From positions 448,001 to 512,000 of the forward strand of contig CAWFQK010000004.1 of NCBI GenBank assembly GCA_963817955.1: DNA of 64,000 bases, in the 5' to 3' direction. The notes beneath the pieces were generated by a model that worked only from the letters and a program-made list of their open reading frames with translations, was not told where the DNA came from and did not search any database. Position numbers and translations under genes: made by a program. This DNA is from an uncultured Gemmatimonadaceae bacterium. GTDB lineage: Bacteria > Gemmatimonadota > Gemmatimonadetes > Gemmatimonadales > Gemmatimonadaceae. The stretch's first letter is position 1. Each line of letters starts with the position of its first letter. This document shows, in pieces, positions 11,588-46,467 of this stretch.

Positions 11588-11939
11588 AGGCTCACGATCG
11601 AAGCCCCGCGCGGATCGACGATATCCGCGAATCCCCTTCGCCAGCTGCGCGTCGACGATGCCGACCACCGCCGTCGTGTTCCTGCCCACCGCCGCGCCGA
11701 GCGCGGCCGCCGATGGGACTTCCATAAATCCTAACGCGCCTCGCATTGAGCAGCGGCACGATCTTGTCGAGACTGTTCCGCGACGCGTCGCGCGCGACGA
11801 TCGGCGATGAACGACCTTATTCGCTTCGCCGCTTCCCGCACTTGGTCCACACCGACCACCGCGCCGCCGCCGCGCACGCCGAGCCCGGCCAGCCGAAGCA
11901 CTTTCGTTCGCCGCACGCGTGCGCCTTCACGTCACGCAT
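11588..11939 (-). CDS. L7Ae/L30e-like RNA-binding protein (YlxQ-like; frameshifted, approximate)
   Basis: KVLRLAGLGVRGGGAVVGVDQVREAAK and SAAALGAAVGRNTTAVVGIVDAQLAKG. Lies between nusA and infB. Confidence 0.75.
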
Positions 11940-13293
11940 CACGGCACCGATCCTTCGTCGGCGCCCTGTCCGGTGCTTCGCATGTTGCTGTCTTCCGTCG
12001 GCCGTGACCTCGTCGATGAGCGCCATGAGGCGGTCGGCCTCCTCCGGCGCAATGCCGGCGAGCTTGAGGAAGTCCTCGCGCTCGAGATCGATGATGTCGT
12101 TGAGGGTCTGGTAGCCCGCATCCTCGAGCACGGCCACCGTCGCCGGCGGCATGCCCTCGATGTCCGACAGCTTCACGTCCGCCGCTCTTCCGCTCTCTTG
12201 CCGGGAGCGGCGCGAAGAGCGCGACTGCCGCCGCCGCGCTCCAGCCACTCGCGGCTCGAGTAGAGATCGATCTTCCAGCCGGTGAGCTCCGACGCGAGCC
12301 GCACGTTCTGGCCGTTGCGCCCGATGGCCAGCGAGAGCTGGTCCTCGTCCACGACGGCCTGGATCGTCTTGCGTGGCCGCGATCGCTGAACACGCGCGCC
12401 ACCTTCGCCGGCGCGAGCGCCAGCTTGGCGAAGCGCTCCGGATCGGACGACCAGGGCACGATGTCGATGCGCTCGCCGCCGAGCTCGTTGACGACGGCCT
12501 GCACGCGCGAGCCCTTGAGCCCGACGCAGGCACCGACGGGATCGATCGAGTCGTCGCGCGAGAACACGGCGATCTTCGTGCGGCTGCCGACTTCGCGCGC
12601 CGCCGCGCGGATCTCGACGATGTCCTGCTGGATCTCCGGCACCTCGAGCTTGAACAGCGCCTTCACGAACAGCGGGTCGCCGCGGCTGAGAATGAGGCGC
12701 GGTCCCTTCGGCGTCTCCTCGACCCTCTTGAGCACGGCGCGAATCGGCTCGCCCTGATTGATAGTGCTCGCGATGGTTCTGCTCGCGATACGGAATGATT
12801 GCCTCCGCCTCGCGGAACTTGTTGAGCATGACGACGAGCTTGCCGCGCTCGATCTGCTGCATCTCGCCGGAGAGCAGATCGCCGACGCGCGTCGCTGAAC
12901 TCATCGCGGATCTTGGTCCGCTCGCCCTCGCGGACGCGCTGGATGATGCGCTGCTTGGCGGCCTGCACCGCGGCACGGCCGAACTCGGCGAAGTCGACGG
13001 GCTCTTCCATGACGTCGCCGACTTCGAAACTCTCGTCGAATGGCTGGCCTCCTCGAGCGAGATCTCGCGCGCCGGGTCCTCGACGTCTGCGACGACGGTC
13101 TTCAGCAGGACGATGCGAATATCGCCCTTGTCGTCGTCGATGTCGACCTCGGCCTGCACGTTGGGGCCGTACTTCTTGGCGAGGGCGGCGATGAATGCCG
13201 TCCTGTAAGGAGCGCGTACAGCTCGGCGCGATCGAGCTGCTTTGTGTTCGATACCTCGCGAAACGCGGCGAGAATCTCTGCAGAACTGACCAT
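11939..13293 (-). CDS. nusA: Transcription termination/antitermination factor NusA (apparent frameshifts)
   Basis: [79 protein letters not shown]. Confidence 0.93.
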
Positions 13294-13354
13294 CCAGGAC
13301 CCCTCATGTGTGCGTCGTGGCGCGCTGATTCTGCAGCGCGACCGAGCGATGTCG

Positions 13355-28696: not shown

Positions 28697-29502
28697 AGGT
28701 ATGGATGCTCGGCAGCGGCAGCAGCGGCAACGCGATTCTCATCGAGTGTGACGGATCGCGCCTCCTCATTGATTGCGGGTTCGGAACGCGCGCCCTTGCC
28801 GGGCGGCTGAAGACGATCGGCGTCGAGCCGGAGTCGATCGACGGTTGCTTGATCACGCACGAACATTCTGATCACGTGAAGGGCGCGGGTGCCGCGGCCA
28901 AGCGTTGGGGGTGGGGTATCTACGCCACGCCAGGGACGGCCCAGGCGCGCGAACTGACGGAGACGCCGGTTCACCGGTTCGAACCCGGCGCGACGCTCGA
29001 ATTCCCACGTATGGTCGTGGCGACGACCGCTACACCGCACGACGCCAATCAATCCGTGGGCTTCGTCGTGGAGAGCCGATCCACTGGCGCGCGCGTCGGG
29101 CTCTTCTATGACATTGGCCATGTGAGCCGCGAGATCGCCAGCGCCTGCACCTCACTCGACATGTTGGTGCTCGAATCGAATCATGACGACGCCATGTTGC
29201 GCGATGGCCCCTATCCTCGGTGGCTGCAGAGTCGCATCTCCTGCAAGACGGGCCATCTGAGCAATCGCGACGCCGGCGTGTTCGCACGCGAGGCGCTGAC
29301 CTCCGGCGTGAATCATCTGGTGCTCGCGCATTTGAGTGAGAAGTGTAATTCCGAAGTGGTCGCGCTGGAATCAATGCGGAGCGCCATCGCCCGGTCGCGG
29401 TTCAAGGGGACGCTGAGCGCGGCCCGGCAGAACGAAGTCGTCGGGCCGTTCACGCCGAGTGGAGTGCGCGCCGAAACACCGGTGCAGTACACGCTGTTGT
29501 GA
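28693..29502 (+). CDS. MBL-fold metallo-hydrolase (YycJ/WalJ-like)
   Basis: LGSGSSGN, THEHSDH, LESNHD, GHLSN, LAHLS. GTG start overlaps the previous stop. Confidence 0.88.
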   Translation: MKVWMLGSGSSGNAILIECDGSRLLIDCGFGTRALAGRLKTIGVEPESIDGCLITHEHSDHVKGAGAAAKRWGWGIYATPGTAQARELTETPVHRFEPGATLEFPRMVVATTATPHDANQSVGFVVESRSTGARVGLFYDIGHVSREIASACTSLDMLVLESNHDDAMLRDGPYPRWLQSRISCKTGHLSNRDAGVFAREALTSGVNHLVLAHLSEKCNSEVVALESMRSAIARSRFKGTLSAARQNEVVGPFTPSGVRAETPVQYTLL

Positions 29503-29520
29503 GGGGACCGGGACACGGGA

Positions 29521-29725
29521 TACGAAGCCCTGTCATCCCGAGCGAAGCCCTGTCATCCCGAGCGAAGCCCTGTCATCCTGAGCGGAGCCCCGTCATCCCG
29601 AGCGAAGCCCCGTCATCCTGAGCGGAGCCCCGTCATCCTGAGCGAAGCCCCGTCATCCTGAGCGAAGCGAAGGATCTCTCCGCGTGGCGAAGCGGTCATT
29701 CGTCGCTACGCTCCTCATGAGGACA
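29521..29725. repeat. Tandem array of seven 20-bp units ending in a REP-like imperfect inverted repeat
   Basis: (AGCGRAGCCCYGTCATCCYG)x7 at 29521-29660, then AGCGAAGCGAAGGATCT and a degenerate inverted partner TCGTCGCTACGCTCCTCATGAGGACA. Confidence 0.85.
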
Positions 29726-29987
29726 GGAACATTGGCAGCTGCCATTGTGTCTTTCCTGTAGTAGGAAGAGTAGAACGCGATGAAATCTTTCGGCAGGCCG
29801 CCATCGATCGGCCAAGCCTCGTGCCGCCGCGCCGCTGCGGCGTAATGTCTCCACAGTGCGGCCGGTACGGAATTTCATTTGGCCTTCGAGTAATCACGGT
29901 CGTGCTGAAAGAGAATTGCGCCCCGGCAGGCATCCGGCGTGCGGCGTTAACAGAGGAGCAACAGACGTGCGACACGTCGCGATCGCC

Positions 29988-30150
29988 GTCGGAAGAGCCG
30001 GAAGGGTCGCCGGAAGAGACGGAAGGGTCGCCGGAAGAGACGGACTCGTCGTCAGGAGTGACGGAATGGTCGTCAGAACCGACCGAGCCGCCTTCGGAAG
30101 AGTCGGAGTCGCGTTCGGAAGAATCGGAGCCTCCTTCGGACCGGTCGGTG
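29988..30150. repeat. Degenerate 21-bp tandem repeat (about 8 units)
   Basis: Units such as GCCGGAAGAGACGGAAGGGTC and TTCGGAAGAGTCGGAGTCGCG. Confidence 0.75.
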
Positions 30151-30205
30151 TCTGCGTGAGGGGCGGTGGTCTTGCCGGTAAGGTGCGGGGTCCGTCCGCG
30201 ACACG

Positions 30206-31249
30206 ATGGCCTGCGCGCTTCACGATCGGGCGTGGCGCCTGCACACGAGACGATTCCTTGTGCACCGCCAGCCATCCCTGCTGAACGCGAGCGACTGGGT
30301 CGTGCACGCCGATCGATTGCCTGTGGACGCGGACCCATTCCACGTTGACACGGATCTATTCCACGTCGACACGGATGAGTCCCTCGTGACATTGCGACAG
30401 AGAGGTCTCAACGGCCGAGGGTCTCGTGTTGACGGCGACGACTCCCCGCGTGACGCCGGTCGATCCCTCCGGCAGGGCGTGCAGTGGGTGGTGAACACGC
30501 GGGCATTCGAGCTGAACGAGCCGGAAAGCTTCCTGGACGACCGCGAGTCCGATATTGATTGCGATGGGTTCGTGCTTGACCGCAAGGAGTTCGTGCTTGA
30601 CCGCGAGGGGTTCGTGCTTGACCGCGCGCCGTGCCATCTCACCACGGACGAGTCACCCCTCGACACGCGTGGGTGCCATCTCAACCGGAACGACTCCGAC
30701 CGGACCGAGAGGCAATCTCAGGTGGACGGCACAGTGTCTCAGCGAACGGGGCGAGGATTGTCGGTGGAAGCGCATGAGATGGGCGTGGATGCGCGGGAGA
30801 GGCGTGTTGACGAGAGACGGTCCGGTGTGGCGCGAGCGGCATTCGGGCTCGACGCCGGGGAGTTCCCTCTTGACCGGAGCGACTCCCCCCTGAACAGCGG
30901 CTGGTGCGAGCTGGATGCGCGGGAGTCCCTGCTCGATCGGCGCTCATTCGCTCTCGACCGCGAGGACTTCCATCTACACACGCGTCAATTCGGTCTCGAC
31001 CGCGAGGACTTCCACCTGCACACGCGTCAATTCGATCGAGACAGCGAGGGATTCCCTATGAGCAGGCGTGGATCCCATCTGAACACGCGGGCATCCCCTC
31101 TGCACGCGGACCGATTCCCTCTCGGCACAGTCGCCTCCCCTGCGGGTAGCGATCGATTCCCTCTCGACACGCTCCCATCCCTTCGGGTCGCCGATCGATT
31201 CGTTGTCGCCGCCCGCTCGTCCCGCGATGAGCGTAGTCCTATATATTAG
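30206..31249 (+). other. About 1-kb 21-bp periodic tract; possible heptad-repeat protein
   Basis: Uninterrupted frame reads DADPFHV-DTDLFHV-DTDESLV...DRKEFVL-DREGFVL...DREDFHL-HTRQFGL-DREDFHL. Coding status uncertain. Confidence 0.5.
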
Positions 31250-31399
31250 TTCCGAAAACAGGGGGTCAGCGCAAGGGCCAAGATGTCCGATTGACCACGC
31301 TCGCCATGTTGTACAGGAACGGGGGTTGCCGACTCAGCCCCCGAGCGACGCACGCGTGGGATAGTCTGATGCACGATTCCGCCGACTATCATGTTCGCC

Positions 31400-31749
31400 T
31401 TGCCTTTGCAGTTCGACCGCAATCGCAAACCTGACAGTTACTGTATTTCAGCTGTCCCAGGGAAGATTGCCGAGACGGTGTCATGATTGTACGAAGACTC
31501 GTAGCTCGACCGCGGGATTTCATTTCCGGCTGCGTCGAAGACGCTGATAGGAAGGACGTACTTCCGATCCCTCGCCACCCCGGTGTCGCTCGGCGCCATT
31601 TCCAAGCGGATTGCTCGCGGCCCGGTGCTATTCGAGCAAGCAGCAATGAGGACGACGCTCAGAAGCAAGAGTTCACTCGCGGCGACTTTGGCGTGCGCAG
31701 TCCGGCGAATGCGCTGTACGGGACGGTGCCCATCCTGAGCCTGCTCATG
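31400..31749 (-). pseudogene. Degenerate lipoprotein gene
   Basis: Lipobox LLLSVVLIAAC-SNSTGP and an Ig-like fragment. The nearest ATG (31749) is out of frame and the ORF stops early. Confidence 0.4.
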
Positions 31750-31920
31750 AGTTTTCTGTCCATTTCTGCGTGTTACGCCGCGACCGCATGCAGCGTAGCG
31801 ACGAAGGTGCCGTGGCATATCCCGGGGCAAGCGGTTGTGGCTGCGCAACTTAGAAGCTTGCGATCGCATATCCCGTCGGCGCTACACTGCAAGCGTCGCC
31901 GATGTTTTGTGCGCTTCTGC

Positions 31921-31952
31921 AGCGTATAGTGACCACCTACTTAGCGTTATAC
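31921..31952 (+). mobile_element. attI-like integron entry site (crossover G/TTATAC at 31946)
   Basis: GTTATACAGC is the exact reverse complement of GCTGTATAAC ending cassette 1. No upstream R''/L'' arm is visible, so it is not an attC. Confidence 0.6.
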
Positions 31953-31975
31953 AGCAACACGCATCTCCACGCCAC

Positions 31976-32755
31976 ATGATTCCCGACGTTCGGTTCGAAG
32001 CGGACTTTTTGCGTGCTGCTCTGCTGCTCGGCGTGGTCCGCGAGCCTGACGTGCGCAGCTGGGCCGACGCGCTCCTCACGACCGATGCGGGGCCGATTGC
32101 TCTCCTGGCCGACGTCGCCCTTGCCCCACCGGAGTTGACGGCGCTTCGCGAAGCCCTGCGACCCCTCGCGGCTCCATCCGACCGCGAATCGCTCGGGGCC
32201 GCCCTACTCGCCTTTCTGGCGACTGATCCTGGGGCGGTTGCCGCCGCCACGTCGGATCGACTTCGGGTGCTGGCGCAACTTCGGCGCGAGGATCTCCTCA
32301 CGCACGATCTCGCCGAGGCGATTAAAACGTTCGAAGATCGATGGATGCTTGCCGCCGCGGGGATCGGAGTCGATCCCGCGATTGCTCCTGACCTCGACCG
32401 CTGGCTCGGGGTCGCGCACGGCCCCAGATACTATCGCATCTCGCTCGCGCACGCGGACGAGCGCGCGGCCCTACTCGCCGCGCTGTCGCGCACGGTCGTG
32501 CGCGATCGGCGAACGATGCCGTCCCCGCTCGGCGCCCGTCAGGCGTGGCTTGTCGAAGCAGCGGCCGGCACGAGCCCCGCGGTGGTGCTCAACGCGGCAC
32601 TCTGGCAACTCGCGGTCGGTGCATTCGCGCCCCTGCCTCTGGCGAGCCGCATCCCCTACGGCGCGCGCCCGCTCAATGCGGTGCAACTCTTGGACGAAGC
32701 CACAGCCGAGCCGATGGGGGCGCGCGAGGCTGGCGATCGATTGGCGGCTGTATAA
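31976..32755 (+). CDS. Cassette 1: hypothetical protein (259 aa)
   Basis: ATG lies 30 nt after the crossover; the TAA stop lies inside the attC R'' box. Confidence 0.75.
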   Translation: MIPDVRFEADFLRAALLLGVVREPDVRSWADALLTTDAGPIALLADVALAPPELTALREALRPLAAPSDRESLGAALLAFLATDPGAVAAATSDRLRVLAQLRREDLLTHDLAEAIKTFEDRWMLAAAGIGVDPAIAPDLDRWLGVAHGPRYYRISLAHADERAALLAALSRTVVRDRRTMPSPLGARQAWLVEAAAGTSPAVVLNAALWQLAVGAFAPLPLASRIPYGARPLNAVQLLDEATAEPMGAREAGDRLAAV

Positions 32756-32872
32756 CGGGCGCTCCACCTGACAGGTGCCGACGGTCGTGGATCGTGGCGC
32801 CCGCCAGCGTCGCGCAGTAGTCTTTTGATATCGCGCCTAATCGGGCCCTGCAGGTGAGCTCAAGCGTTATAC
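32750..32872 (+). mobile_element. attC site 1 (123 bp)
   Basis: GTATAAC...CT[C]CACCTG[A]CAGG...CCTGCAGGTGAG...GTTATAC: R''/L''/L'/R' boxes with extrahelical bases. Confidence 0.9.
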
Positions 32873-32924
32873 GGCAACAGCATTCCGCTGCAGAGCAACC
32901 AGACGACCGCCGCGTCCTTAATAC

Positions 32925-33738
32925 GTGCCAGCGACGATTGATCATCCCGCATTCTGTCAACCGCGCGATCCATCCGCGCGAGTCTGGCGTTACATGGATC
33001 TTGCGAAGCTGGTCGGCGTTCTGGACACGCGCTCCCTCTACTTCGCCCGCATAGATCAACTCGCCGATCCCTTCGAGGGATCTCTTTCGAGAGCGGAATT
33101 CGAACAACTGAAAGCCACCGCCGAAAAGGGAGAGAGAGAACACCGTCCCTCCCGACTGGCGCGGTCGATATCTGGAAATACTGCTCGCGAACGCTCGGCG
33201 GCAACGGAAGTCAACGTACGTCAACTGTTGGCACCTGAACGACGGTGAATCGGAAGCAATGTGGCGGCTGTACGCATCGTCGGGCTTAGGAGTCGCAATC
33301 CAGGCTACTTACGCCCGGCTGACAGCTGCGCTCCCAAGCGATATAGAACCTCCTCCGGCTACGTACCACGCGGGTGGACTGACAAGACCGCCGGTCTACC
33401 TTGGCGTCGTGCAGTACACCGACCACGAGCGCGACCCAATGCCTACCGGGAACGCGTTCTACCCAGTGCTTCACAAGCGACGCGCGTTTACACACGAAGA
33501 AGAAGTTCGAGCTGTGATCTGGCTTGGCGACCGCGGGATATTCCACGATCCGGCGAATCAGGCGGACAATCCTCTTGGCCTCACCGTCCCAATAGGACCG
33601 GAAGCTCTCATTGAATCCGTGCGGGTGTCGCCCCTGGCACCCCCCTGGTTCGCTGATGTTGTTCGCTCCGTCGTGAACAAGTTCGCTGTGGCCATACCCG
33701 TAACGCAGTCCGGACTTACGAGCCCCCCGTACTTATAG
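32925..33738 (+). CDS. Cassette 2: DUF2971-like protein (frameshift near the GA run at 33128-33140)
   Basis: VWRYMDLAKL...LYFARIDQLADPFEG, then in a second frame YVNCWHLNDGESEAMWRLY...GVAI...HKRRAFTHEEEVR...VRVSPLAPPWF. Confidence 0.75.
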
Positions 33739-33780
33739 GGCTGCGCCGTCCGAGCGCACGGGGCGGCATCTCGACCTGCC

Positions 33781-33903
33781 GTATAACGTGCGCTGCACCT
33801 GTCAGGTGCCGCCGATCGCTGGTCGTGGCGCCCGTCGGCATCGCGTAGTAGTCTTTTGGTATCGCACCTAAGCTGGCCCTGCAGGTGAGCTATTGCGTTA
33901 GAC
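33781..33903 (+). mobile_element. attC site 2 (123 bp)
   Basis: GTATAAC...CT[G]CACCTG[T]CAGG...CCTGCAGGTGAG...GTTAGAC; colinear with attC1. Confidence 0.9.
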
Positions 33904-33927
33904 CGCGACCTCCAATCACGTGCAACC

Positions 33928-34863
33928 ATGAGAAACTTCTTGAGATTTGTTCGAGGTCGTCGCTGCCGGACTAGTCGCCTATTGCTGGTGCTGGCAGCGC
34001 TCGCGACGGCTGCGCGCTCGCCGCTCGCTCAATCGCGCGGCGCTATGCCAGCGCGCCGCCAAGCTTGCGTTACCGTCGGAACGATGACGCGAGCCGAAGT
34101 CGCACCTGATACTGCGGCCGTGTATTCGGCCGAGTCGGCTGACTTTCCCGCAGGATGGCTCCGCCGGGGAACGTCAGTTCGCGTCATGAGCACGACTGGA
34201 ACCTGGGCTACTGTTGCGGCGCCCGAAGGCGACTCTCATGGATATCGCATGCGAGGCTCCGATCTATGCGTGCTCCCGGGCACAAATACCGACTCCATTG
34301 CCGGGCGCTCCGCCAGCCGTCCTCTGATCCCCGACCCCGTTGTCGGCTACTTCGCTCGCGAGGGACTAGACGTAAGCGCGATCATTCAGATTGACTCAAT
34401 GGTCTCGACCCAGACAGATCGCGCCGGCGGTGCCTACGCGGTCACGGACTACGCGGTCAAGTACCTCGTCGCGAGTGGCCGTGTTTTACAAAGCCGACCA
34501 ATGCCTGGCTGGTATGATGAGATTAGCGTTAGAACACTCGTTTGGGAGCCACTGAGTGGCATCGGCGAGTCAGGAAACGGACCATCGGTTTGGGTCGATC
34601 AGCGCGCGGACTCTGCCCGGCGCAGCTTGCGCGTCATCAACATTGGAGGCGGTGGCGTGCCCGTTGTCGTGTATGCGGGCTCTTCACCCGTCGGAATTCA
34701 GATCATTGGGTTCGTTCCAAGCGCAGGATCGGAATGGATCATCGGACAGTGCTCCAATCGTACATTGCGCGTTAGTGAACGATCGTTAATGATGTTTCGT
34801 AATGCCGACATCAGCCAAGCTCTCATGAGCGAGGGTAATCGATTGTGTGCTATTGGTCAGTGA
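33928..34863 (+). CDS. Cassette 3: exported hypothetical protein with an SH3b-like segment
   Basis: Signal-like N-terminus; GWLRRGTSVRVMSTTGTWATV resembles a bacterial SH3 domain. ATG lies 31 nt after the crossover. Confidence 0.65.
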   Translation: MRNFLRFVRGRRCRTSRLLLVLAALATAARSPLAQSRGAMPARRQACVTVGTMTRAEVAPDTAAVYSAESADFPAGWLRRGTSVRVMSTTGTWATVAAPEGDSHGYRMRGSDLCVLPGTNTDSIAGRSASRPLIPDPVVGYFAREGLDVSAIIQIDSMVSTQTDRAGGAYAVTDYAVKYLVASGRVLQSRPMPGWYDEISVRTLVWEPLSGIGESGNGPSVWVDQRADSARRSLRVINIGGGGVPVVVYAGSSPVGIQIIGFVPSAGSEWIIGQCSNRTLRVSERSLMMFRNADISQALMSEGNRLCAIGQ

Positions 34864-34906
34864 GCGACGCTCTGATAGCTATACTCATCGCGCCCGTCGC
34901 GGCGAG

Positions 34907-36569
34907 TGTCAAGATAGATGTCGCATGACGCGTCACGCGACTGCGCTGCGGCGACGGTTCCGCGGGTCGTGATCCGGATTGAGCCGAGACGGCGGCGATC
35001 GGCTCCCAGTTGCGCGTGGCCCCGCTCCAGCGCGTCGGGCGTCCGACGACGCGCGCGCGGCGTAGACGGCGTGACGCGCGGCGAGGAGCGCGACGTCGCG
35101 CCCCGCGTGCCGATCGTCGGGCGTCACGAAGCGAATCGCGCTGTGGAGATGCCTGCGTGTTGTACCAGCGGACAAAGGCAGCGCACCCAGGCGCGCGCCG
35201 CCGCGAGATCCACGAAGGGCTGCGACGGATATCGGGCCGATACTTCATCGTGCGGAAGAGCGATTCGGAAAACGCATTGTCATTGCTCACGCGGGGGCGA
35301 CTGAAGGAGGCGAGCACGCCCAGCCGCTCGAGCGTCGCGACCATCGTGGCGCCCTTCATCGGCCCGCCGTTGTCGGCGTGCAGCACGATGCCCGCGCGGA
35401 TCCACGCGCTGCGCGCGACACGTCGCGGGAAGAGCGCCGCGGCCTGGAAGCCGACACTCGTGCACCGCCGCAGCCGAAGATCTTCGCGGCTCCAGACGTC
35501 GATCATCAGATACAAGTACAGGAAGACCCCGCGCACCGGCGTCTTGAGATAGGTTATGTCCCAACTCCAGAGCTGATTCGGCCCCGTGGCGACGATGCGC
35601 GCGCAGCGGCCGGCGCACGGGCGCCTTCGCGCGCCCGCGATGCTGCGAGCAACTGCCTCCGCGCGCAGAATCCGATACATGGTCGATTCGGAGGCGAGAT
35701 AGCGCCCAGCATCCGCGAGCCGCGGCACGATCTGATGCGGCGTGAGGTCCCGATAGGCGGGCGACGTTCATCGACCGCGAGAATGCGTCCGCTGCTCCCC
35801 GGGCGTGAGTGTGTTCGGCGGCGCCGATGATGCGGGCCGTGGCGCGCGCATCGGTCGGTCGTCTCGGGCCCGGCGCGCCACCGCTCGACGCGTGCGCACG
35901 CTGAGGCCGACCATCTGACACGCCGGGCCGCGGCGCGCGCCGGCCCCGACCGCCGTCCTCGATCAGCGCCACGAATCATCGTCTCGCGTCTGCGGGTCCG
36001 TGGTAGCGTCCGCGTCCCCCCAGATCGCTTGGACTTTTTTTTTGAGCACCAGGAGCGCCGCCGTCTCGGCCAGCGCGGCATCCTTCCGCCGCAGCTCGCG
36101 TTCGAGCTCCTGAATGCGTTTCGCATCGGCCGAGCGCGGCGTGCCGAGGGCCGGCTCACTCAGCGCCGCTTCCGCCGCGCGTCGCCAGGCGGTCAGATCG
36201 CGCCTCGTGCAGCCCTTCGCGCCGGAGCAGCGCGCCCAGCTCGCTGCTCGCTCAGCCCGCGCGCTTCGCGTCACGACGCGGAGCTTCTCCGCGCCCGTCC
36301 ACTTCTTCTTCGTCGAGGAGTGTCATGCCGCTCGACGTTACGCGGTTCCGCGCAGCACCCATCGCGAGAGGCGTGGCTTGACGGCACACCGACTTCGTGC
36401 GCGAGCGCGTTGGCACTCATCGCCGACGGCCCGATCAAGCGACGTAGCATTCGCGTCCTTGAACGCCGGACTGTACTGCGGCATCAGCAACTATCCACCT
36501 TTGACCCCCGAGGATGGATCTACGTTTGACCGCTGAAGCTACTGCGGTCGTGCGACAACTATCCTGACA
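34907..36569 (-). mobile_element. IS3-family insertion sequence (orfA about 36484-35963, orfB about 35980-34925; frameshifted)
   Basis: Terminal IRs TGTCAAGATAGATGTCGCATGAC / TGTCAGGATAGTTGTCGCACGAC. orfA ends ALAETAALLVLKKKVQAIWG with an A9G run. orfB DDE motifs WSWDITY, LHADNG, SNDNAFSESLFRTMK. Confidence 0.92.
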
Positions 36570-36581
36570 CCGGGGGGTGCG

Positions 36582-36676
36582 GTCTAACGAACTCTGCACT
36601 TGTCAGGGGCGCTGCGGAACGCGCGCTGCGCGCGCATCTTGTTGGATGCCCCTGCAAGTGAGCTGGGGCGTTAGGC
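36582..36676 (+). mobile_element. attC site 3 (95 bp)
   Basis: GTCTAAC...CT[G]CACTTG[T]CAGGGGC...GCCCCTGCAAGTGAG...GTTAGGC. Confidence 0.9.
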
Positions 36677-36940
36677 AACTTCCAATCCACGATGCCCTTA
36701 CAGCTTGATTTATACGAGGAAATGCTCTCGCTCATCAGCGAGCAGGCGGATGCCATCGCTGAGGATTCCTTCAGCATGTTCCCAACGCAGGTCGGCTCGT
36801 GCTGGCAGGTGCGGATTCCGACGAAGTTGACCACCGAGTCCGATCGAAGCTGACCACCGAGTCCGACGAATCTGACCAGCACGTTAGCAGTGGCGGTTGT
36901 GTCGGAGCGAAGCGACGGGCAGTGGGTCAGTGAGCCGTGG

Positions 36941-37710
36941 TTAGGAGGTCGGGGTCGGAGTGGACGGGGAGTGCTCGGCCGCAGCCAGGCGTTTGCGCAT
37001 GGAGCCGCCCTTGAGGGTGAGAGTGTGCGCGCCATGCACGAGTCGGTCGAGGATGGCGTCGGCGAGCGTGGGATTGCCAATGTATTCGTGCCAGTGTTCG
37101 ATCGGCAGCTGACTCGTGACGAGCGTCGCCCGCTTACGATACCGATCGTCCAGCACTTCGAGCAGATCGCGTCGTTCGGGATCGTTCAGCGACACAAGTC
37201 CCCAATCGTCCAAAATGACTAGATCCGTCTTGGCGAGCTTGAGGAGCAGCTTGGGGTACGAGCCGTCGCGCGCGCGAGCGCGAGTGCATGGAGGAGCCGG
37301 CCGAGGCGGAAGTAGCGCGTGGTCAGCCCGTGGCGGCAGGCGGCGTGGCCCAACGCACACGCGAGATAACTCTTGCCCACCCCGGTGGCACCGACCAGGA
37401 GCACGACCTGGTGCTGCCGCACCCACTCCGCGGAAATCAGACGCACGAGGACGCTGCGATCGAGCCCGCGCGGCGCCCGCCAGTCGATGTCCTCGGCGGC
37501 CGCCGCGGCGAGGGCGAGCCGCGCGTCTTGTAAGAGGCGCTGCAGTCGGCGGTCTTCGCGGTAGGTCACCTCCCGCTCGAGCAAGAGTGCGAGGCGTTCT
37601 TCAAAGGGGAGATCGACCGCCGCACTGGTCTGGAGTTGCTCGCCGAAGGCGGCCGCCATGCCGGGCAGCCGGAGGGCGTGAAGGCGCTCGACAGTCGTAT
37701 ACGAAGTCAT
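36941..37710 (-). CDS. istB: IS21 helper ATPase IstB (frameshift near 37270-37290)
   Basis: [48 protein letters not shown]. Confidence 0.92.
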
Positions 37711-39314
37711 AATGAGAGTTTCTCCTGGATCGGGGGGTGTGCGAGGGACGTGAGGGATGCGGGGGACGAGGGAGGTGAGGGTGGCGTGAAGTAGTTCGCG
37801 CCACGCACGTGGGCATGGGTCGGCGGCAGCGTCAGCGTGGCGGGCTCTTCGAGCGGCACGGCATCGAGACCATGTTCGAGAATGGATTTCACCGAGCGAT
37901 AGGACACCGCGCCGCTGCGGAGGGCGCGGAAGCACGCCGCCTCGACTCGGGGGTCGGTGTACCGCTTGGCGAGGCTCATGAGGCCGAGGCAGGCGCGATA
38001 GCCCTGCTCCGGGTGGGGCTTGCTCTCGAGAATTCGCTGGACCACGGCGCCCGTGGACTGGCCGATGGCCTCCCCCCAGCGGACTAATCGATCCGGCGTC
38101 CACTCGAGATGCTTCTGGTGCGCCTTGGGCCGATGCGTGGGCTCGGTGGTGAAGCCGCCGATGTGGCGACTGCGCGGATGCAGGGCGACGCGTTGCCCGC
38201 CGTACAAGATTTCGACCGCCGTGGCGGTGAGCCGCACCTCGACGGCTTTGCGGAGCAGCCGATGCGGCACGCTGTAGTAGTGCCGCTCGACCTCGATGTG
38301 ATAGTCGATGTTCACGCGCGCTTTCTTCCACTCCGAGTATGTATAGGAGTGACTCGGGAGCGGCAGGAGCGCCGGGCGGTCGAGCGTCTCCAACAGCGTG
38401 CGGCGGGTACCCGCGAGCTTCTGAAACGGCCGGTCGTTGAGCGCGGCGAGCAGTCGTGCGATTTCGCGGTTGGCCGCCGCGAGACCGATCAGCGTGTGGT
38501 GCCGGAGGGGGGCCAGGACCCAGCGCTCACAGATTTGCACCGCTGTTTCAACTTTCGCCTTGTCCCGAGGCGACCGCACCCGGGTGGGCAGCACCGTGGT
38601 CCCGTAGTGTGCCGCGAGATCGGCGTACGTGGGGTTAACGTCGGGATCATAGAAACACGGCTGGCGGACGCCGCTGCGCAGATTATCCGGGATTGTCAGG
38701 CGTGGCACCCCGCCGAAGCCCGCGTACATCCGCACGTGTGAGCCGATCCAGTCCGGCAGCGACTGCGTCCACGTCAGCTCGGCGAACGTGTAATTGCTCG
38801 CGCCCAGCGTGCCGACGAAGAGCTGCGCCTCGCGGCACTCGCCCGTGCTCGGGTCCACGACGGGGAGCGTCTGCCCGGCATAATCGACGAACACCTTCTC
38901 CCCGGCGACGTGGGCCTGGCGCAGCACCGGATCCAGCGTGTCCGCCCACGCGCGATAGAGCGTCGTAAACTGCGAATACTGATAGCCCGTCGGCTGGGTG
39001 GCCTTGTACTCTAACCAGAGGAGCCGCAGGGTGACCCCTTTGCGGCGCAGCTCCTGGTGCAGCGTCGGCCAGTCTGGGACGAGTTTGGGGATCGTCAGCG
39101 GCTCGGGAGGAACGAGCTGGGCGCTCAACGCTGCGTCATCGAGGCGCGCGCAGTCCGGCCACTGCACGCCGGCCAGCGTCGCGCGATCCAGATAGAGCCC
39201 AACGGTATTGTGGCTGATGTTCAGGCTGCGGCCAATGGCCCGACGACTGAGGCCCGTGGCAGCGAGGCGGAGCACTTCACGAAGTTTGCGCATGGAGAGG
39301 CGGTCTGCGGCCAT
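37707..39314 (-). CDS. istA: IS21 transposase IstA
   Basis: GVTLRLLWLEY, GEKVFVDYAG, IPDNLRSGV, PRDKAKVE, YSVPH. Confidence 0.95.
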   Translation of the reverse strand: MAADRLSMRKLREVLRLAATGLSRRAIGRSLNISHNTVGLYLDRATLAGVQWPDCARLDDAALSAQLVPPEPLTIPKLVPDWPTLHQELRRKGVTLRLLWLEYKATQPTGYQYSQFTTLYRAWADTLDPVLRQAHVAGEKVFVDYAGQTLPVVDPSTGECREAQLFVGTLGASNYTFAELTWTQSLPDWIGSHVRMYAGFGGVPRLTIPDNLRSGVRQPCFYDPDVNPTYADLAAHYGTTVLPTRVRSPRDKAKVETAVQICERWVLAPLRHHTLIGLAAANREIARLLAALNDRPFQKLAGTRRTLLETLDRPALLPLPSHSYTYSEWKKARVNIDYHIEVERHYYSVPHRLLRKAVEVRLTATAVEILYGGQRVALHPRSRHIGGFTTEPTHRPKAHQKHLEWTPDRLVRWGEAIGQSTGAVVQRILESKPHPEQGYRACLGLMSLAKRYTDPRVEAACFRALRSGAVSYRSVKSILEHGLDAVPLEEPATLTLPPTHAHVRGANYFTPPSPPSSPASLTSLAHPPIQEKLSL

Positions 39315-40191
39315 GGTCTTCTCCTGGGAGGTCCAGGGGAAGCCGTCGGCGTTCGATCGTCCGTCGCCTTACTTCTCCAAAGCCGCGATGCGCAGCAGTG
39401 CTCAGCGGTGCCGTGGTGGGCGGCTTCCCCGTCACGGCTGGTCAATATCGCCGGAACGGGTGGGCAGCATCACCGGAATCGCTGGTCAGATTCGTCGGAA
39501 TCGGTGGTCAGCTTGCACCGGAATCGCTGGTCAGCTTGGCCCGGATTCGGTGGTCAGAATCGGCCGGAATACGCAGGCAGGATGAGCTGTTCGTCTGCGG
39601 GCGTGCGGTCAACGGCTATGAGCCCGTCTGGACGCGCGCCGACGTTGCAACAAGCGCCGGCAGGATCCGCATCCTTGACGCGATTCGGACTCAATACGAA
39701 GCGACCGGGTGCCAGATGCGTTGGATCACGGATTGGTGGAACGCGCGCACTGGTTACAATACCGCGCGGTCGGCGTTTTGGAGAGTCATTCGCGAGGCTA
39801 CGTACGGCCTGGGTATTGTTGCCCCGCAGAGCCTGGAATGGTCAGCCTCGCTGGCCTGGGGAAATCTCTACCGGGTCGCTCCGGGCGTGACCGGTAATCC
39901 ATCGGCACAACTGAGACAACGAATCCAACTCGATTTGTGTGGCGAGCGGTTAGCTCGGGATTTAGCGATCCTTCGACCACGGCGCATGCTCTTCCTGGCC
40001 GGAATGGAATGGGTCGAACCCTTCCTGCATCGGTATGAATCCGATCTCGTGAGGCGCAGCGGCTTGGTTCAAGGGTACGGCACGCTTCATCTGGCGGACG
40101 GATGGCGAATCGCCACTGTGATTGCCAAACACCCGCAAGGCAAACCAGAGGGTCCACTAACCGCCGAAGTTCTCGATTGCTTCAGCAAGTT

Positions 40192-40288
40192 GCCTAACGA
40201 TCGTTGAACTCGACAAGCAATCTTCGGATGGCGCTGGCTTCGCCAGCGCTTTATTGGACTCGCTTGCGAGTTAACTCGGGCGTTACGC
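40192..40288 (+). mobile_element. attC site 4 (97 bp)
   Basis: GCCTAAC...GTT[G]AACTCG[A]CAAGC...GCTTGCGAGTTAAC...GTTACGC; central hairpin GCGCTGGC-TTC-GCCAGCGC. Confidence 0.88.
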
Positions 40289-40303
40289 CGCAATTGTAGT
40301 TGC

Positions 40304-40782
40304 ATGAGAGGAACCGTTCTTCTAATCGAGCTCCACACCGCGCTGGCCCCTCGCCCAGAGCCAGTCCCGGCGGACGCGCGCCTCACCAATACTCCGCTCA
40401 CCAGAACTCCGCCCACCAGTACCGTCCCGCGCCCGACGCGACTCCAGTGTCGCGTCTGTCAACACGGCCACCTCCACCTCATCGAGCGGGTCGACCGACC
40501 GCGCGCCCCGCCATGACGCGCCTGGTTCGGTCAGCACGCTCGGATCATGGATCGGCAACGGTGTCGATCGCGCCGCCGTCCAGCCGTGCTGCACCCTCCC
40601 CCGACGTACCACGTCTTACACCGGGTGCACTGGCACTGACCCGCGCTCAGCCGCCGTCACCCGGCGCCTTCGCCGAGTCGCGCGTGCATCCTAGCTCGAA
40701 AGATCCTCGCGGCCGCGTCCATCTCGCTTGAAATTCCAGAGGCCTTGATCCCTCCGCCCGTCACGCGCGGATCGAGTTCAAC
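40304..40782 (+). mobile_element. Remnant 3' end of an IS91-family (HUH/Y2) element
   Basis: ORF 40304..40516 ends CRVCQHGHLHLIERVDRPRAPP, like the CxxC...RxPP tail of IS91-type transposases. Downstream TTGAAATTCC (40728-40737) resembles an oriIS motif, and the segment ends in GTTCAAC. Confidence 0.55.
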
Positions 40783-40832
40783 TGGAGATTTTGCCGCGGC
40801 TTCGCGCGGCACGAATCTCTACTGCGTTATAC
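40776..40832 (+). mobile_element. attC-like site 5 (57 bp, atypical)
   Basis: GTTCAAC-TGGAGATT-TTGCCGCGGC-TTC-GCGCGGCA-CG-AATCTCTA-CTGC-GTTATAC; ATG of the next gene 27 nt after the crossover. Confidence 0.7.
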
Positions 40833-40852
40833 CGCGACACCCTTGATTCATC

Positions 40853-41591
40853 ATGCCGGACTACGAATGCGCCTACTGCGGTCACGTCGCACCGGCGACT
40901 GACGATCACGTGCCGGCGAAGAACCTCTTCGTCGGCCCGCTCGCAGGTGATCTGCCCTCCGTGAAGTCGTGCGACTCTTGCAACGGGGGTTCGTCCAAAG
41001 ACGACGAGTATTTTCGCGACGTCATCCTCAAATACCTTCCAGTGTCGGATCGGGCCGCAGCGCGACCGCTCGTCGCGAAGATGCTGCGCGCCGCCGGGAA
41101 GCCCGAAAAGGAGGCTTACGCACGGTCGATTCTCGGTGAGTTCCGAACCGTCGATCTGAGGACGCCGTCTGGGCTGAACGTCGGTACGCAAGACGCGTTC
41201 GCGCCCGATATGCCGCGCCTTGAACGAGTCGTTTCGCGATATGTGCGCGGACTACATTGAATATCACCTCGGCGTCCGCGCCCCTACCGACGCGCCCATT
41301 CGCATCGTCTTCAATCCAGATGAGATCAACCGGCGGCACGACGAGTTCGCGGCTATGTTCGTGGGCGGGCAGGCGTGCGTCGTGCAACACGGTGTCTTTC
41401 AATATGCTTGGAAGAAGTTCGGTGATGCACCCGCGAGTACGTACTGGCTGCTCATCTTTTTCGATGTCTGTCCGATCATTGGCGCCGTTCGGCCGCACCG
41501 GCTGGTTGGCGCGCCCTGCCGTATAACGAACGCTGAAGCTGGCAAAGAGACTATTGAATTGTTGCGCGCTTCGCGCGCAACTCTTATTTGA
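40853..41591 (+). CDS. Cassette 6: HNH-like Zn-finger endonuclease protein (frameshift near 41257; 3' end uncertain)
   Basis: CAYCG...TDDHVPAKNLF...VKSCDSCNGGSSKDDEYFR; continues in a second frame GVFQYAW...WLLIFF. Confidence 0.75.
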
Positions 41592-41621
41592 TCTCTTTGC
41601 AGCTTAGCTGGGGCGTCATGC
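41521..41621 (+). mobile_element. attC site 6 (101 bp; R' core reads GTC instead of GTT)
   Basis: GTATAAC...GCT[G]AAGCTG[G]CAAAGAGA...TCTCTTTGCAGCTTAGC...GTCATGC. Confidence 0.85.
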
Positions 41622-41641
41622 GGCAGACAAACATCCCCTGA

Positions 41642-41983
41642 ATGAAGATTCCAAACGGCAACCGCGCGATCGTCGATGACGTGAAGGTGCGCGACTACCT
41701 GCTCTCGCCCGACCATCCGATCGGCCGGTTCAAAGCCCGTGTCTTCGGCTCCGTCGGCTACGGTCGCGACAACTGGCAATGCCTGAGGGACGATCTCCTC
41801 GCGCTCGCGTCGACGATCGATGCCAACCCGGTTCAGACAAACCGGTTCGGCGAGCACTGGGCCGGCACGGGGCAGCGGCGCGGACCGAGCGGTGCCCCCT
41901 TGCCAGTCATGACTGTTTGGCTCATACCTTCTGAGGGCGCGTCGCCGCGCCTGATCACTGCGTATCCTGCGAGCGCCGCATGA
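41642..41983 (+). CDS. Cassette 7 gene A: DUF6883-like protein (putative toxin/nuclease)
   Basis: MKIPNGNRAIVDDVKVRDYLLSPDHPIGRFKARVF...TVW...PRLITAYP. Confidence 0.75.
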   Translation: MKIPNGNRAIVDDVKVRDYLLSPDHPIGRFKARVFGSVGYGRDNWQCLRDDLLALASTIDANPVQTNRFGEHWAGTGQRRGPSGAPLPVMTVWLIPSEGASPRLITAYPASAA

Positions 41984-42222
41984 CCATTCACGAACTCGAT
42001 ACTGTTGTCCTCGAACGCGATATCCCGGAGCATGGGCTTCGGCGCGGAGACTTGGGTGCGGTGGTCCACGTGTACGGCGAACAATCCATCGACGTCGAAT
42101 TCGTTCGACTGTCCGGGGAAACGCAAGCGCTCGTACAACTGACCCCCAATGATGTCCGCGGCGTGCGCGATGCTGATCTCCCCGCTGTACGAACGGCCGA
42201 GGTTCGGCGTGGTGCCGCATAA
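41980..42222 (+). CDS. Cassette 7 gene B: DUF4926-like protein (putative antitoxin/immunity)
   Basis: ELDTVVLERDIPEHGLRRGDLGAVVHVY...VEF...GET. ATGA-coupled to gene A; stop inside R'' GCATAAC. Confidence 0.8.
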   Translation: MTIHELDTVVLERDIPEHGLRRGDLGAVVHVYGEQSIDVEFVRLSGETQALVQLTPNDVRGVRDADLPAVRTAEVRRGAA

Positions 42223-42240
42223 CAATCGCGAACGGGACAG
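42217..42240 (+). mobile_element. Truncated attC site 7 (R'' only)
   Basis: TGCCGCATAAC is complementary (10/11) to the cassette start GTCATGCGGCA; no L'/R' follows. Confidence 0.6.
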
Positions 42241-42259
42241 TCTTTCCCGCTAGGAGCCT

Positions 42260-42628
42260 GTGATGGTTGCTCAGCACCTGTCCTCAGATCGGGGAGCGGA
42301 TGTCACGCTCGATGTGCTCTGGCGCTCGACCGCGCTTCGCCTGCCCAGCCGTGCGGTTGCCAGTTTGCTCGTGGCCGGCATGACCATTCTCGCGGGTTCC
42401 ATCTTCGCTTCAGGGCCACTGAACCTTGGAGCCCTTGGCATCTGGATGATCGCATTCGCGGTCTACGCCGCGATCATCCAATCGGCCGTGGCGCACCGCT
42501 CGCGCCGCAGGGTCACACGGTTCCTCGCGAGGCTGACGAGCGCCATCGCCGCGTTCGCGGCCCTGAGTGTCGGGCTGCTGCTCTTGGCCGCGGTCTTCGG
42601 CGGCAGCATCGAGGTCATGCGCCGCTAG
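42260..42628 (+). CDS. Hypothetical membrane protein
   Basis: AGGAG RBS; three hydrophobic segments. Confidence 0.6.
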   Translation: MMVAQHLSSDRGADVTLDVLWRSTALRLPSRAVASLLVAGMTILAGSIFASGPLNLGALGIWMIAFAVYAAIIQSAVAHRSRRRVTRFLARLTSAIAAFAALSVGLLLLAAVFGGSIEVMRR

Positions 42629-42753
42629 TCTTTCGGTCGCGAGCAATGACAGCTCATCGTGGCAGCGAGCTGACGAACGCTGAACTTGTCGAGCGACCTT
42701 GCCATCCGCTGCAACCACGGTTCCTCGCCCGACTTCCTCCGTTGCATCCATCA

Positions 42754-43032
42754 ATGCTCTTCATGATCATCGAGCACTTTCGGGGAGGCGATCCGCGGCC
42801 CGTCTACGAGCGTTTCCGTGCTCAAGGCCGGCTCGCACCCGACGGCCTGCACTATGTCAACAGCTGGGTGACAGTCGACCTCGCGCACTGCTACCAGATC
42901 ATGGAGTGTGAGGATCGCGGCCTCCTGGATCAATGGCTCGCGGCGTGGACAGATCTCGTCGACTTTGATGTCTATCCGGTTATCAGCTCGGCGGAAGCGA
43001 CTACTCATGTTATATCTGGGACGTCGAGTTAA
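42754..43032 (+). CDS. DUF3303-like protein
   Basis: MLFMIIEHF...VYERFRAQGRLAPDGLHYVNSWV...CYQIME...WTDLVDFDVYPV. Confidence 0.8.
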   Translation: MLFMIIEHFRGGDPRPVYERFRAQGRLAPDGLHYVNSWVTVDLAHCYQIMECEDRGLLDQWLAAWTDLVDFDVYPVISSAEATTHVISGTSS

Positions 43033-43108
43033 GCATCTCGACCATGCAAGCTGACGTGCGCTGAAGCCGACGAGCGATTTGTTGTCACGAATGCACGGAG
43101 GATGTCGT

Positions 43109-43813
43109 ATGACCGGTCCTATCGACAACTCACAACACAGGGCTGCACGAACGGCCGGCATAGCCTACGTGCTTTCCTTCGTACTCGTCGTCGGCGTGAA
43201 TTTCGGGATCTTCGGACGGCTGCTCGTCGGCGATCCAGGCCAGATTGCGCGGGCGGTCATCGCGAACGCAACCGTCTTTCGCATTGGTCTCGTGGGCCAG
43301 CTCCTCTACTCCGTCGGCGTTGTCGTCGTCAGTGCAGCCCTGTACATAGTGCTCGGGCCCGTTGACCGGCTGCTGGCCCTCCTGGCTGGCGTCGGCCGCC
43401 TCGTCCATGCATTCACTTGGCTCCTGGTCTCGCTGAATCTCTTGACTGCATTGCGGCTGCTGGGCCAGCCCGACTATGCGCACGCCCTCCCGCCGGATCA
43501 ATTGGCGGCGCTCGCTCGGCTCGACCTCTCCGGCTTTGATCAGTACTACGTCGGCCTTCTCTTCTGATCGTTGGCCTCGACCCTCGGCGCCTATTTGTGG
43601 CTCAAATCGCGGTACATCCCGAGGGCCATGGCCACGTTTGGCCTCGCGGCGAGCGTCTGGGGTGCGGCCTGCTGCTTCGCGCTTTTCATCTTCCCACGCT
43701 TTTCAAACGTGGTGAACCTGTGGTGGTTCGATGTCCCGATGGTGCTCTTCGAACTGAGTCTGAGCCTTTTGCTGATTGCCAAGGGCCTCCGATCGCCTCG
43801 ACTCGCGCATTAG
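43109..43813 (+). pseudogene. DUF4386-like membrane protein with an in-frame TGA at 43565-43567
   Basis: AARTAGIAY, IANATVFRIG, ALYIVLGPV, YLWLKSRYIPR, FELSLSLLLIAKG. The two ORFs are in the same frame; GGAGG RBS. Confidence 0.75.
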
Positions 43814-44306
43814 GGTCGTCAATTGTGGCAATTGCCGACGGCGTTGGCAGATGCCGCCCTTCGCGCACCACACCGAGGCCCCACGACGGAGGCTGTGCGC
43901 TCGCGACAGCGCTCCGTTGGCGACCAGTCTCGGCGAAGGATGGGCCGGAATACGCACTCGCGTGCCGCCATCCAGTGTTCGGCCGCTGATGCGCGAAAAC
44001 TTGGCCGCGGCGTTCAGGCGCGGGGACGACGTCCGCCTATTTCATCGCGATCGTCGGCGGGATGCCCGCAGCTCTTCGTCCTGCTTGGGCCTCTACCTTA
44101 CAAACACCCCAGTTTCGAAAACACAACTTTTCGGTTGCTGGCAGGGACCAGTGCAACTCCAACTCTGATTCGCCGACCAGCGATCAATGAAACCGGAGCG
44201 CGAACGCTAGAAATGCCACGAAGGGGCGCAACAACCGTCCCACGCATTCGCGGCATTCGTGTTCACATCGGCAATCTCGCCCCGTCAGCGCTGTACGACG
44301 CGCTGG

Positions 44307-44513
44307 AAGCGCCGAAAATCGCGGTACAAGCGCTGAAAATCGCGATGGCAGCGCTGAAAGACGCGATACAAGCGGCGAAAAACGCGATGCAAGCACCGAA
44401 ATTCGCGATGCAAGCGCTGAAATTCGCGATGACAGCGCTGAAATTCGCGACACAAGCAGTGAAACTCGCGACACAAGCACTGAAAATCGCGACGCAAGCG
44501 CTGTTCGGCCGAC
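44307..44513. repeat. 21-bp tandem repeat (about 10 units)
   Basis: Consensus AAGCGCTGAAAWTCGCGAYRC; the plus frame reads (ALKFAMQ)n. Confidence 0.85.
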
Positions 44514-44518
44514 CCTCA

Positions 44519-44617
44519 GCGTGTTTCACTGACCTGCTCGCGTGATTCACCGGCCTGCTCGCGCGTTTCACTGACCTGCTCGCGTGATTCAGCGACCTGC
44601 TCGCGCCTTTCACCGAC
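44519..44617. repeat. Second 21-bp tandem repeat (about 4.5 units)
   Basis: GCGTGTTTCACTGACCTGCTC variants. Confidence 0.85.
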
Positions 44618-44709
44618 CCGCGCGCCCTGTCAGCTCGCGTGAGCGGACATTCTGTCCGCTCATACGCGTCCTTTCGCGTCAATGCAGTGGTGTACGCGAC
44701 CACTCTCAC

Positions 44710-44748
44710 GGAAAACGGGGGCTGCCGAAGCAGCCCCCGTTTCCTTTC
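44710..44748 (-). terminator. Intrinsic terminator downstream of groEL (possibly bidirectional)
   Basis: AAACGGGGGCTGC-CGAA-GCAGCCCCCGTTT, 13-bp stem. Confidence 0.85.
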
Positions 44749-44776
44749 GTACAGTGTCGAGCGACGAACGCGTGGG

Positions 44777-46419
<1,643 letters not shown>

Positions 46420-46467
46420 GGTGCGAAATCCTCATTCAGAAAGTGAGAATTAGCGTTTGTGGATAGT

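Follow-up and report, generated by a model that had tools for sequence, protein, structure and literature searches.

Architecture of the locus

We analysed an integron cassette array in a 64 kb stretch of DNA (hereafter the window, C4:448001-512000) from the 4.53 Mb, 9-contig genome of an uncultured bacterium described as a soil bacterium, with an estimated completeness of 94% and an estimated contamination of 4.28%. Positions elsewhere in the genome are prefixed by their contig (C1, C3 or C4), those without a prefix belong to the window. By its GatB protein, nearest to metagenome-assembled genomes (MAGs) of Gemmatimonadaceae and Gemmatimonadetes (60–63% identity), and by an integron integrase (IntI) encoded outside the window, nearest to Gemmatimonadaceae MAGs (72% and 65% identity), the lineage is Gemmatimonadaceae-like. 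The array consists of seven cassettes on the plus strand, two of them hit by insertion sequence (IS) elements, and lies in a 15.3 kb island (29503-44780) between the genes for an MBL-fold hydrolase (ending at 29502) and GroEL (Table 1), as in the first-pass annotation, which was made from the window sequence alone and had proposed a cassette array between core genes. In three of four congeners groEL follows ~150 bp after the MBL-fold gene, the fourth has 7.6 kb of unrelated DNA between the two, and attC matches were found at this locus in 0/4. As all four congeners are without the island between these genes, it is specific to this genome among those searched.

Table 1 Features of the island and related attI copies. 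R1 and R2 are the covariance models described in the text; ORF, open reading frame.
Feature	Position	Strand	Description
Island, left part	29503..31672		20-, 21- and 42-nt tandem repeats; position where intI would be expected
intI 3' stub	31673..31719	+	last 47 bp of an integron-integrase gene; stop TAG reads TAC
attI-like region	31720..31948	+	ends in GTT crossover 31946-31948; 19-nt core 31919-31937 including TATAGT
Cassette 1	31947..32866	+	ORF 31976-32755, 259 aa
attC a1	32750..32872	+	123 nt; R1 83.7 bits (training site), R2 34.9 bits
Cassette 2	32867..33897	+	one gene in two frames, 32925-33248 and 33259-33738; DUF2971 / PADLOC PDC-S31-like
attC a2	33781..33903	+	123 nt; 83% identical to a1 (over 132 nt); R2 37.8 bits
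Cassette 3	33898..36670	+	ORF 33928-34863, 311 aa; hydrophobic N-terminal stretch (by eye); IS3-family insert behind ORF
IS3-family element	34906..36570	-	Pfam rve, rve_3; broken transposase frame; 20-nt terminal inverted repeats, 90% alike
attC a3	36582..36676	+	95 nt; R2 88.9 bits; fold z = -3.2 vs shuffles
Cassette 4	36671..40282	+	ORF 36692-36809 + 39582-40207, split by IS21 element; halves in frame, 247 aa
IS21-family element	36810..39575	-	IstA 37710-39314; IstB ORFs 36562-37080 and 37222-38331, frame broken
attC a4	40192..40288	+	97 nt; R2 95.5 bits
Cassette 5	40283..40826	+	apparently without ORF; 86% DNA homolog in C3 array (blastn)
Atypical short site closing cassette 5	40776..40832	+	57-nt hairpin between GTTCAAC and GTTATAC; R boxes unpaired
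Cassette 6	40827..41615	+	one gene in two frames, 40853-41260 and ~41240-41591; N-terminal CxxC...DH...CxxCN
attC a5	41521..41621	+	101 nt; R' GTCATGC; R2 91 bits; fold z = -5.8 vs shuffles
Cassette 7	41616..42223	+	overlapping DUF6883 (41642-41983) and DUF4926 (41980-42222) genes; ends in R'' box 42217-42223
Island, right part	42224..44780	+	DUF6111-like, DUF3303 and DUF4386 genes, then 21-nt tandem repeats 44257-44623; groEL next, minus strand
attI copy	C3:120295-120535		241 bp, 83%
attI copy	C1:48750-48874		127 bp, 80%
attI copy	C3:192111-192033		80 bp, 84%; ATT for GTT at crossover

Structure and detection of the attC sites

Five canonical palindromes in the window (a1 to a5) are genuine attC sites, and the array is a genuine integron cassette array. 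All ten R-box strings quoted in the first-pass annotation were found in place. It had counted six palindromes, of which these five stand, whilst the sixth, the short site that closes cassette 5, is atypical in that its R boxes do not pair and it was matched by neither of the covariance models described below. On their bottom strands the five sites fold into R/L-box hairpins and share one common structure: an 8-bp R-box helix around AAC/GTT, an unpaired spacer, an interrupted L-box stem and a variable centre. Each of the five bottom strands has two bases in the 3' ('') arm of the L-box stem that stay unpaired and break it; these are the two extrahelical bases that had been noticed in five sites, and they are the feature that sets attC polarity. 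Inverted R''/R' boxes with the AAC...GTT core are present in 5/5 canonical sites, the R' core of a5 reading GTC. RNAalifold placed 35 pairs on the five sites, 15 with compensatory changes, and comparison with shuffled sequences was made for a3 and a5 (Table 1). The fold is that of the attC anatomy described by Cury et al. 2016 (PMC4889954).

To detect such sites we built covariance models in place of the IntegronFinder attC model. The first, R1, was made from the five window sites and gave 24 matches in the whole genome at E up to 1: the five training sites, 11 at C4:1375722-1397079 lying directly behind an intact intI gene in the same polarity, and eight in four other regions. These matches are confined to six small regions, with 19 in four arrays, and the rest of the genome is free of them. 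As a positive control, R1 gave 71 matches at E up to 1e-3 around IntI genes (80 loci from other lineages), including four sites at 67–89 bits that follow intI in a Gemmatimonadaceae MAG, arrays lying upstream of the gene in two Luteimonas genomes, and further matches in Acidobacteriota and Planctomycetia loci. The second model, R2, contains no window sequence and was made from 13 sites behind intact intI genes, nine from this genome's complete integron and four from locus L040, all located by R1. Run over the 64 kb with filters off, R2 returned exactly a4, a5, a3, a2 and a1, in that order of score, and besides these only their reverse strands at E below 1e-3. A scan of the window with Rfam, which holds no attC family, returned a tRNA-Sec only.

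A reading of the palindromes as non-integron intergenic repeats, of the repetitive extragenic palindrome (REP) or miniature inverted-repeat transposable element (MITE) kind, which resemble attC by chance, could draw on the likeness of a1 and a2. However, repeats of that kind would have to account for R1 finding arrays beside IntI in this genome, in a Gemmatimonadaceae relative, in Luteimonas, in Acidobacteriota and in Planctomycetia, and for the absence of a genome-wide spread among its 24 matches, and we give this reading practically no credence.

Pairing in a wider set of 25 sites, from this genome and one relative, agrees with the common fold: 90.4% of cells were paired against 78.4% in shuffles (0/500 reached the observed value), falling to 20–41% when the partners were slid by 1–3 columns, and compensatory changes occurred in 18 of the 26 pairs. 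The L-box helix was paired in 94.6% of cells, with compensatory changes in 10/14 pairs, and the AAC/GTT core pairs were kept in 22–24 sites. The two outer R-box pairs were unpaired in 10–11 of the 25 sites, as would be expected of chimeric attC sites, each drawn from two cassettes.

The ends of the cassettes follow the same logic. ORFs begin 22–59 nt downstream of the crossovers, so that the short spacing reported in the first-pass annotation is reproduced, as is its observation that most cassette ends are complementary to their own starts: this applies to five of seven cassettes, at 7–9 of 9 positions beyond the GTT/AAC core. Over the array, R'' boxes agree with the start of their own cassette at 47/63 positions beyond the core, vs. 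29/54 with the adjacent R'. Cassette 6 is ambiguous (6/9 with its own start, 8/9 with the adjacent R'), and in cassette 5 complementarity to its own start is 2/9 only. At the right end, the terminal site consists of a lone R'' box (42217-42223) overlapping the stop codon of the last gene, with the remaining attC missing; the surrounding 91 nt fold no better than shuffles (z = -0.16) and match neither R1 nor R2. Recovery of the five sites by R2, covariation and the cassette-end rule together bear out the cassette array as first proposed.

GTC in place of GTT at the R' crossover core was seen in three attC sites, at 41615-41621, C1:50024-50123 and C4:1387912-1387949; such sites are either dead or a variant tolerated by the IntI of this genome.

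An intI stub and attI at the head of the array

Directly before the first cassette, 276 bp of the window (31673-31948) are 86% identical (blastn) to C4:1374519-1374793, which comprises the last 47 bp of an intact intI gene and the next 228 bp, and the homology stops exactly at the GTT crossover. By this homology an attI site heads the array, preceded by the 3' end of an integrase gene. An upstream site that had been considered as a truncated attC ('a0') was dropped in favour of attI on the same grounds. Since the stub and attI are homologous to an intact platform, the array is not platform-less, and is a degraded integron rather than an orphan cluster of unknown origin.

The same attI segment heads three further integrase-less arrays, giving five genomic copies in total, on three contigs. 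All five terminate at the crossover, beyond which identity over the next 6–7 nt drops to 0.17–0.43 in seven of ten pairs (0.50–0.67 in the three pairs involving the copy at C3:192k). Over the 80 nt that lead up to the crossover, the copies share 51 invariant columns and are pairwise 79–89% identical, with the 19-nt core including TATAGT perfect in 5/5 copies and found nowhere else in the genome at up to 3 mismatches. No attI-like DNA was found in 200 other genomes of the family, with three candidates per genome scored, and blastn of attI against 80 loci of IntI relatives gave one 32-nt match at chance level only.

The array at C3:120295-124802 is a second integrase-less array, with two attC sites and a paralog of cassette 5. 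About 84 bp past its attI crossover lies a fragment that resembles IntI over its N-terminal 143 aa, shares 34% identity with the resident protein and scores 79.8 bits with TIGR02249 (positions 4-135).

The resident integrase and complete integron

The earlier statement that the 64 kb hold no tyrosine recombinase agrees with a six-frame search of the window, which gave no PF00589 match. The nearest such matches are at C4:371315 and C4:524408, the closest of them 34 kb past the array end and not IntI-like. By tblastn the resident IntI had no match in the window below E = 1.5 beyond the stub; the left part of the island, where intI would be expected, contains no recognised gene, no Pfam match and no similarity to IntI.

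The genome-wide search for IntI that the first-pass annotation had called for showed that this contig does encode a bona fide IntI, at a distance of 885 kb. The intact intI (C4:1373552-1374565) encodes 337 aa with no stops and scores 414.6 bits with TIGR02249 (cut-off 265; model positions 2-315), a profile with which 14/14 control genomes stayed under the cut-off; it is thus a tyrosine recombinase with the IntI-specific extra domain. A complete integron (C4:1373552-1397079) is formed by this gene, the attI crossover at C4:1374791-1374793 and no fewer than 11 attC sites in the orientation of intI. The gene is oriented toward attI and the cassettes, the same arrangement as in Gemmatimonadaceae, Acidobacteriota and Planctomycetia loci. 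Two of the matches in the complete integron are mini-sites of 38 nt (C4:1378015-1378052 and C4:1387912-1387949) that resemble attC sites with a deleted centre.

In the sampled family, 115 of 201 genomes carry an IntI above the curated cut-off, several of them with 2–5 matches; G007, G033 and G034 among the IntI-matching genomes are unpublished, and of the four congeners G143 alone has an IntI. The first-pass view of an integron platform in a poorly studied lineage needs correcting in view of these counts and a 2021 review that lists Gemmatimonadota among the phyla with integrons (PMC8618304). A literature search combining integron, Gemmatimonadetes and attC, which was not exhaustive, found no study dedicated to integrons of Gemmatimonadota.

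Origin of the array

We read 31673-42223, with good confidence, as a chromosomal integron that has lost its integrase gene and of which the intI stub, attI and seven cassettes remain. A former complete integron with intI pointing toward the cassettes, as in the intact integron of this genome, would have lost intI when a deletion or rearrangement broke the gene 47 bp short of its stop codon, which would correspond to mechanism (iii) of Cury et al. 2016 (PMC4889954). One IS3-family and one IS21-family element have inserted into cassettes 3 and 4. As the window and the resident integron have attC and attI of one family, it is plausible that the resident IntI acts in trans, excising cassettes of the window array and inserting others at its attI. 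Transcription of the cassettes would come from the attI side, possibly from a promoter using the invariant TATAGT.

Three other origins were weighed against integrase loss. The array could be a piece of the main integron split off by chromosomal rearrangement and without a platform from the outset: attC sites in the two arrays form one family in which R1 and R2 cross-detect, and both arrays contain IS elements able to mediate a rearrangement. However, the window has its own attI and stub, only 86% identical to the resident copy, whose attI stays in place, and since a split would not duplicate attI we consider this origin very unlikely. A contig joined from the integron fragment of another organism during metagenome assembly is slightly less probable still, despite the 9-contig assembly, the estimated contamination and the many indel-split genes, as the window lies inside a 1.71 Mb contig, the G+C content of the array (0.59–0.71; 0.59–0.73 across the window) is similar to that of its flanks, and attI of the same type, attC of the same family and the IS21 element recur on other contigs of this genome. 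Insertion of cassettes by IntI at a secondary, non-att chromosomal site, leaving an orphan array, has a precedent in the IntI-catalysed cassette insertion outside att sites described in bioRxiv 10.1101/2022.09.11.507474, but here the first junction consists of an attI homolog that brings 228 bp of platform sequence and an intI stub with it, and the sequence left of 31946 was not found in the congeners, which leaves this origin with hardly any probability.

Several observations weigh against an integron that has lost its integrase. Cassette 5 violates the start/end complementarity and has an atypical closing site, a5 has the R' core GTC instead of GTT, and the last attC is truncated. The attC models were made in this analysis and the training sites of R2 were found via R1. 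A consensus scan of 31300-34000 for sigma-70-type promoters found none, so the invariant TATAGT as a -10 element remains a guess. Recombination was unobserved: among public runs, parts of the stretch occur only in four soil metagenomes of one study, in shares of 0.06–0.13 and as short contigs, which on 29001-45000 cover mainly the IS21 element and tandem repeats. Their few joints are low-depth and short-sided and were not read as recombination, and such small shares are unable to show excision or circles. Finally, the assembly contains indel errors. The core genes IF-2, NusA, UvrD, TatD and GroEL (8569-13307, 21294-23614, 2935-3727, 44780-46420) are likewise each spread across at least two frames, and short-read contigs from two runs carry an additional C at 37266, observations that together suggest faulty indels in the assembly and not pseudogenes. 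Frame breaks in cassettes 2 and 6, as in the IS genes, can therefore not be taken as decay.

Cassette cargo and IS insertions

The cargo had been described as nuclease-like, a description that profile searches do not support: two of the seven cassettes (4 and 6) have weak leads of this kind from a protein language model, and the families named by Pfam, NCBIfam and PADLOC are DUF6883, DUF4926 and DUF2971/PDC-S31. NCBIfam returned nothing on the cargo but a sub-threshold repeat match on a tandem-repeat ORF. The ORF of cassette 1 has no family in Pfam, NCBIfam or PADLOC, and that of cassette 3 none in Pfam. The two halves of the cassette 2 gene match positions 11-61 and 86-237 of the 245 in the PADLOC profile of PDC-S31, a candidate single-gene phage-defence protein, and DUF2971 is matched by the second half with a sub-threshold 19.9 bits (cut-off 22). 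The protein of cassette 4 has no Pfam match; a language-model lead (0.94) to a cluster with PF03167 in 57% of its members suggests, as a lead only, a product of the uracil-DNA glycosylase (UDG) superfamily. For cassette 6, with no match in Pfam, NCBIfam or PADLOC, a lead (0.96) to a cluster auto-named HNH endonuclease family, which has no Pfam family, suggests in the same tentative manner an HNH-like product. The overlapping genes of cassette 7 score 84.1 bits (DUF6883) and 63.9 bits (DUF4926), and judging from the gene organisation they are likely a toxin-antitoxin-type pair. Cassette 5 was tried as a coding cassette and rejected, with no frame under purifying selection in the comparison with its C3 homolog (16–22 amino-acid changes in 25–27 differing codons). 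Its last 62 nt are identical in that homolog, and the short closing site is thus 100% conserved.

The IS21-family element is flanked by a 6-bp target duplication, GGCAGG (36804-36809 and 39576-39581), has an IstB_IS21 Pfam match near 37264-37686, and recurs twice elsewhere in the genome (99.96% and 98.3% identity); short-read contigs stop at its ends (36810 and 39575). A truncated copy of it adjoins three consecutive tyrosine-recombinase genes at a contig end (C4:1706124-1711788; PF00589 82, 76 and 126 bits), none of them IntI-like. The right end of the IS3-family element (36206-36578, 373 bp) has an 88% homolog in the complete integron (C4:1378731-1379094), and at both sites it lies directly against an R box of attC (R'' in the window, a GTTAGG R'-like box in the integron), which hints that this element may target attC sites.

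Other features of the window

The right part of the island yielded no attC site. On both sides the array is flanked by tandem repeats, with units of 20, 21 and 42 nt (29503-29688, 29987-31106 and 44257-44623). The 20-nt unit (...GTCATCCTGAGCGAAGC...) also occurs just behind the attI of the complete integron (C4:1374858-1374919) and, with a depth of 266 in one soil run, is a highly abundant motif. Far from the array, the tRNA-Sec gene (Rfam, 73.8 bits, minus strand) adjoins an AIR-synthase-related (SelD-like) gene (1343-2385), a pair that suggests a selenocysteine system.

Comparison with known integron types

The array is an element of a known, ordinary kind. Arrays of two or more attC sites with no intI nearby are classed as CALIN (Cury et al. 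2016, PMC4889954), and the window array is of this class, having five attC sites and no integrase in a replicon that also encodes a true IntI, 885 kb away. The first-pass designation as CALIN is right in that the 64 kb are without intI, and incomplete in that the 47 bp intI stub and a recognisable attI are retained, which is also the difference from CALIN as described, since the origin is here readable. Cury et al. report intI pseudogenes near only 15 of 279 CALIN, and attI as unsearchable and unknown for most integrons (PMC4889954). Measured against a complete integron, attI stands at the array head, by homology, and the adjacent intI is reduced to the stub.

The resident intI, pointing toward attI and the cassettes, shares this layout with the inverted integrase group; the window copy differs in being without intI. 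The membership of this group is said to have been set out by Boucher et al. in 2007. The name itself is used for chromosomal integrons in PMC3575428.

Sedentary chromosomal integrons, such as the Vibrio cholerae superintegron, share with the window array a chromosomal location, attC sites that are similar to one another, and cargo in the form of a toxin-antitoxin-like two-gene cassette and a candidate phage-defence gene, themes described for this type in PMC13108822 and PMC12614218. The window array differs in its small size of seven cassettes, its absence from the locus in the congeners and its lack of an integrase. Sedentary integrons are recognised by clade-wide presence at one locus or by more than 19 attC sites (PMC4889954), and here there are 5–6 attC sites, with attC at the locus in 0/4 congeners.

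One integrase and five attI platforms

What this array adds is a readable origin and the presence of one integrase beside five attI platforms. The origin of a CALIN is usually unreadable because attI is unknown outside a few integron classes, and the intact platform in the same genome is the key here, as the window array and three others begin with the same attI.

We also consider, tentatively and with rather more doubt than belief, that the single integrase serves all five attI platforms as a distributed integron, the four integrase-less ones being maintained satellite docking sites and not wreckage. Such an arrangement would fit the 19-nt core that is identical in five copies within 80 nt that are otherwise 79–89% alike, and the sequence past the crossover, which varies in most copies, although the first cassettes of the window and C3:192k start alike (the comparison covers the starts of the first cassettes only). 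It would also fit the one cassette common to two arrays with a perfectly conserved closing site. If true, selection could act on attI without intI as a unit, and satellites of this sort may account for many CALINs elsewhere.

The window array is a clear worked example of the origin of a CALIN by integrase loss, in a soil family, the Gemmatimonadaceae, that the IntI counts suggest is rich in integrons, and the multiple attI copies in this genome make the servicing of remote platforms in trans by one integrase a testable question.

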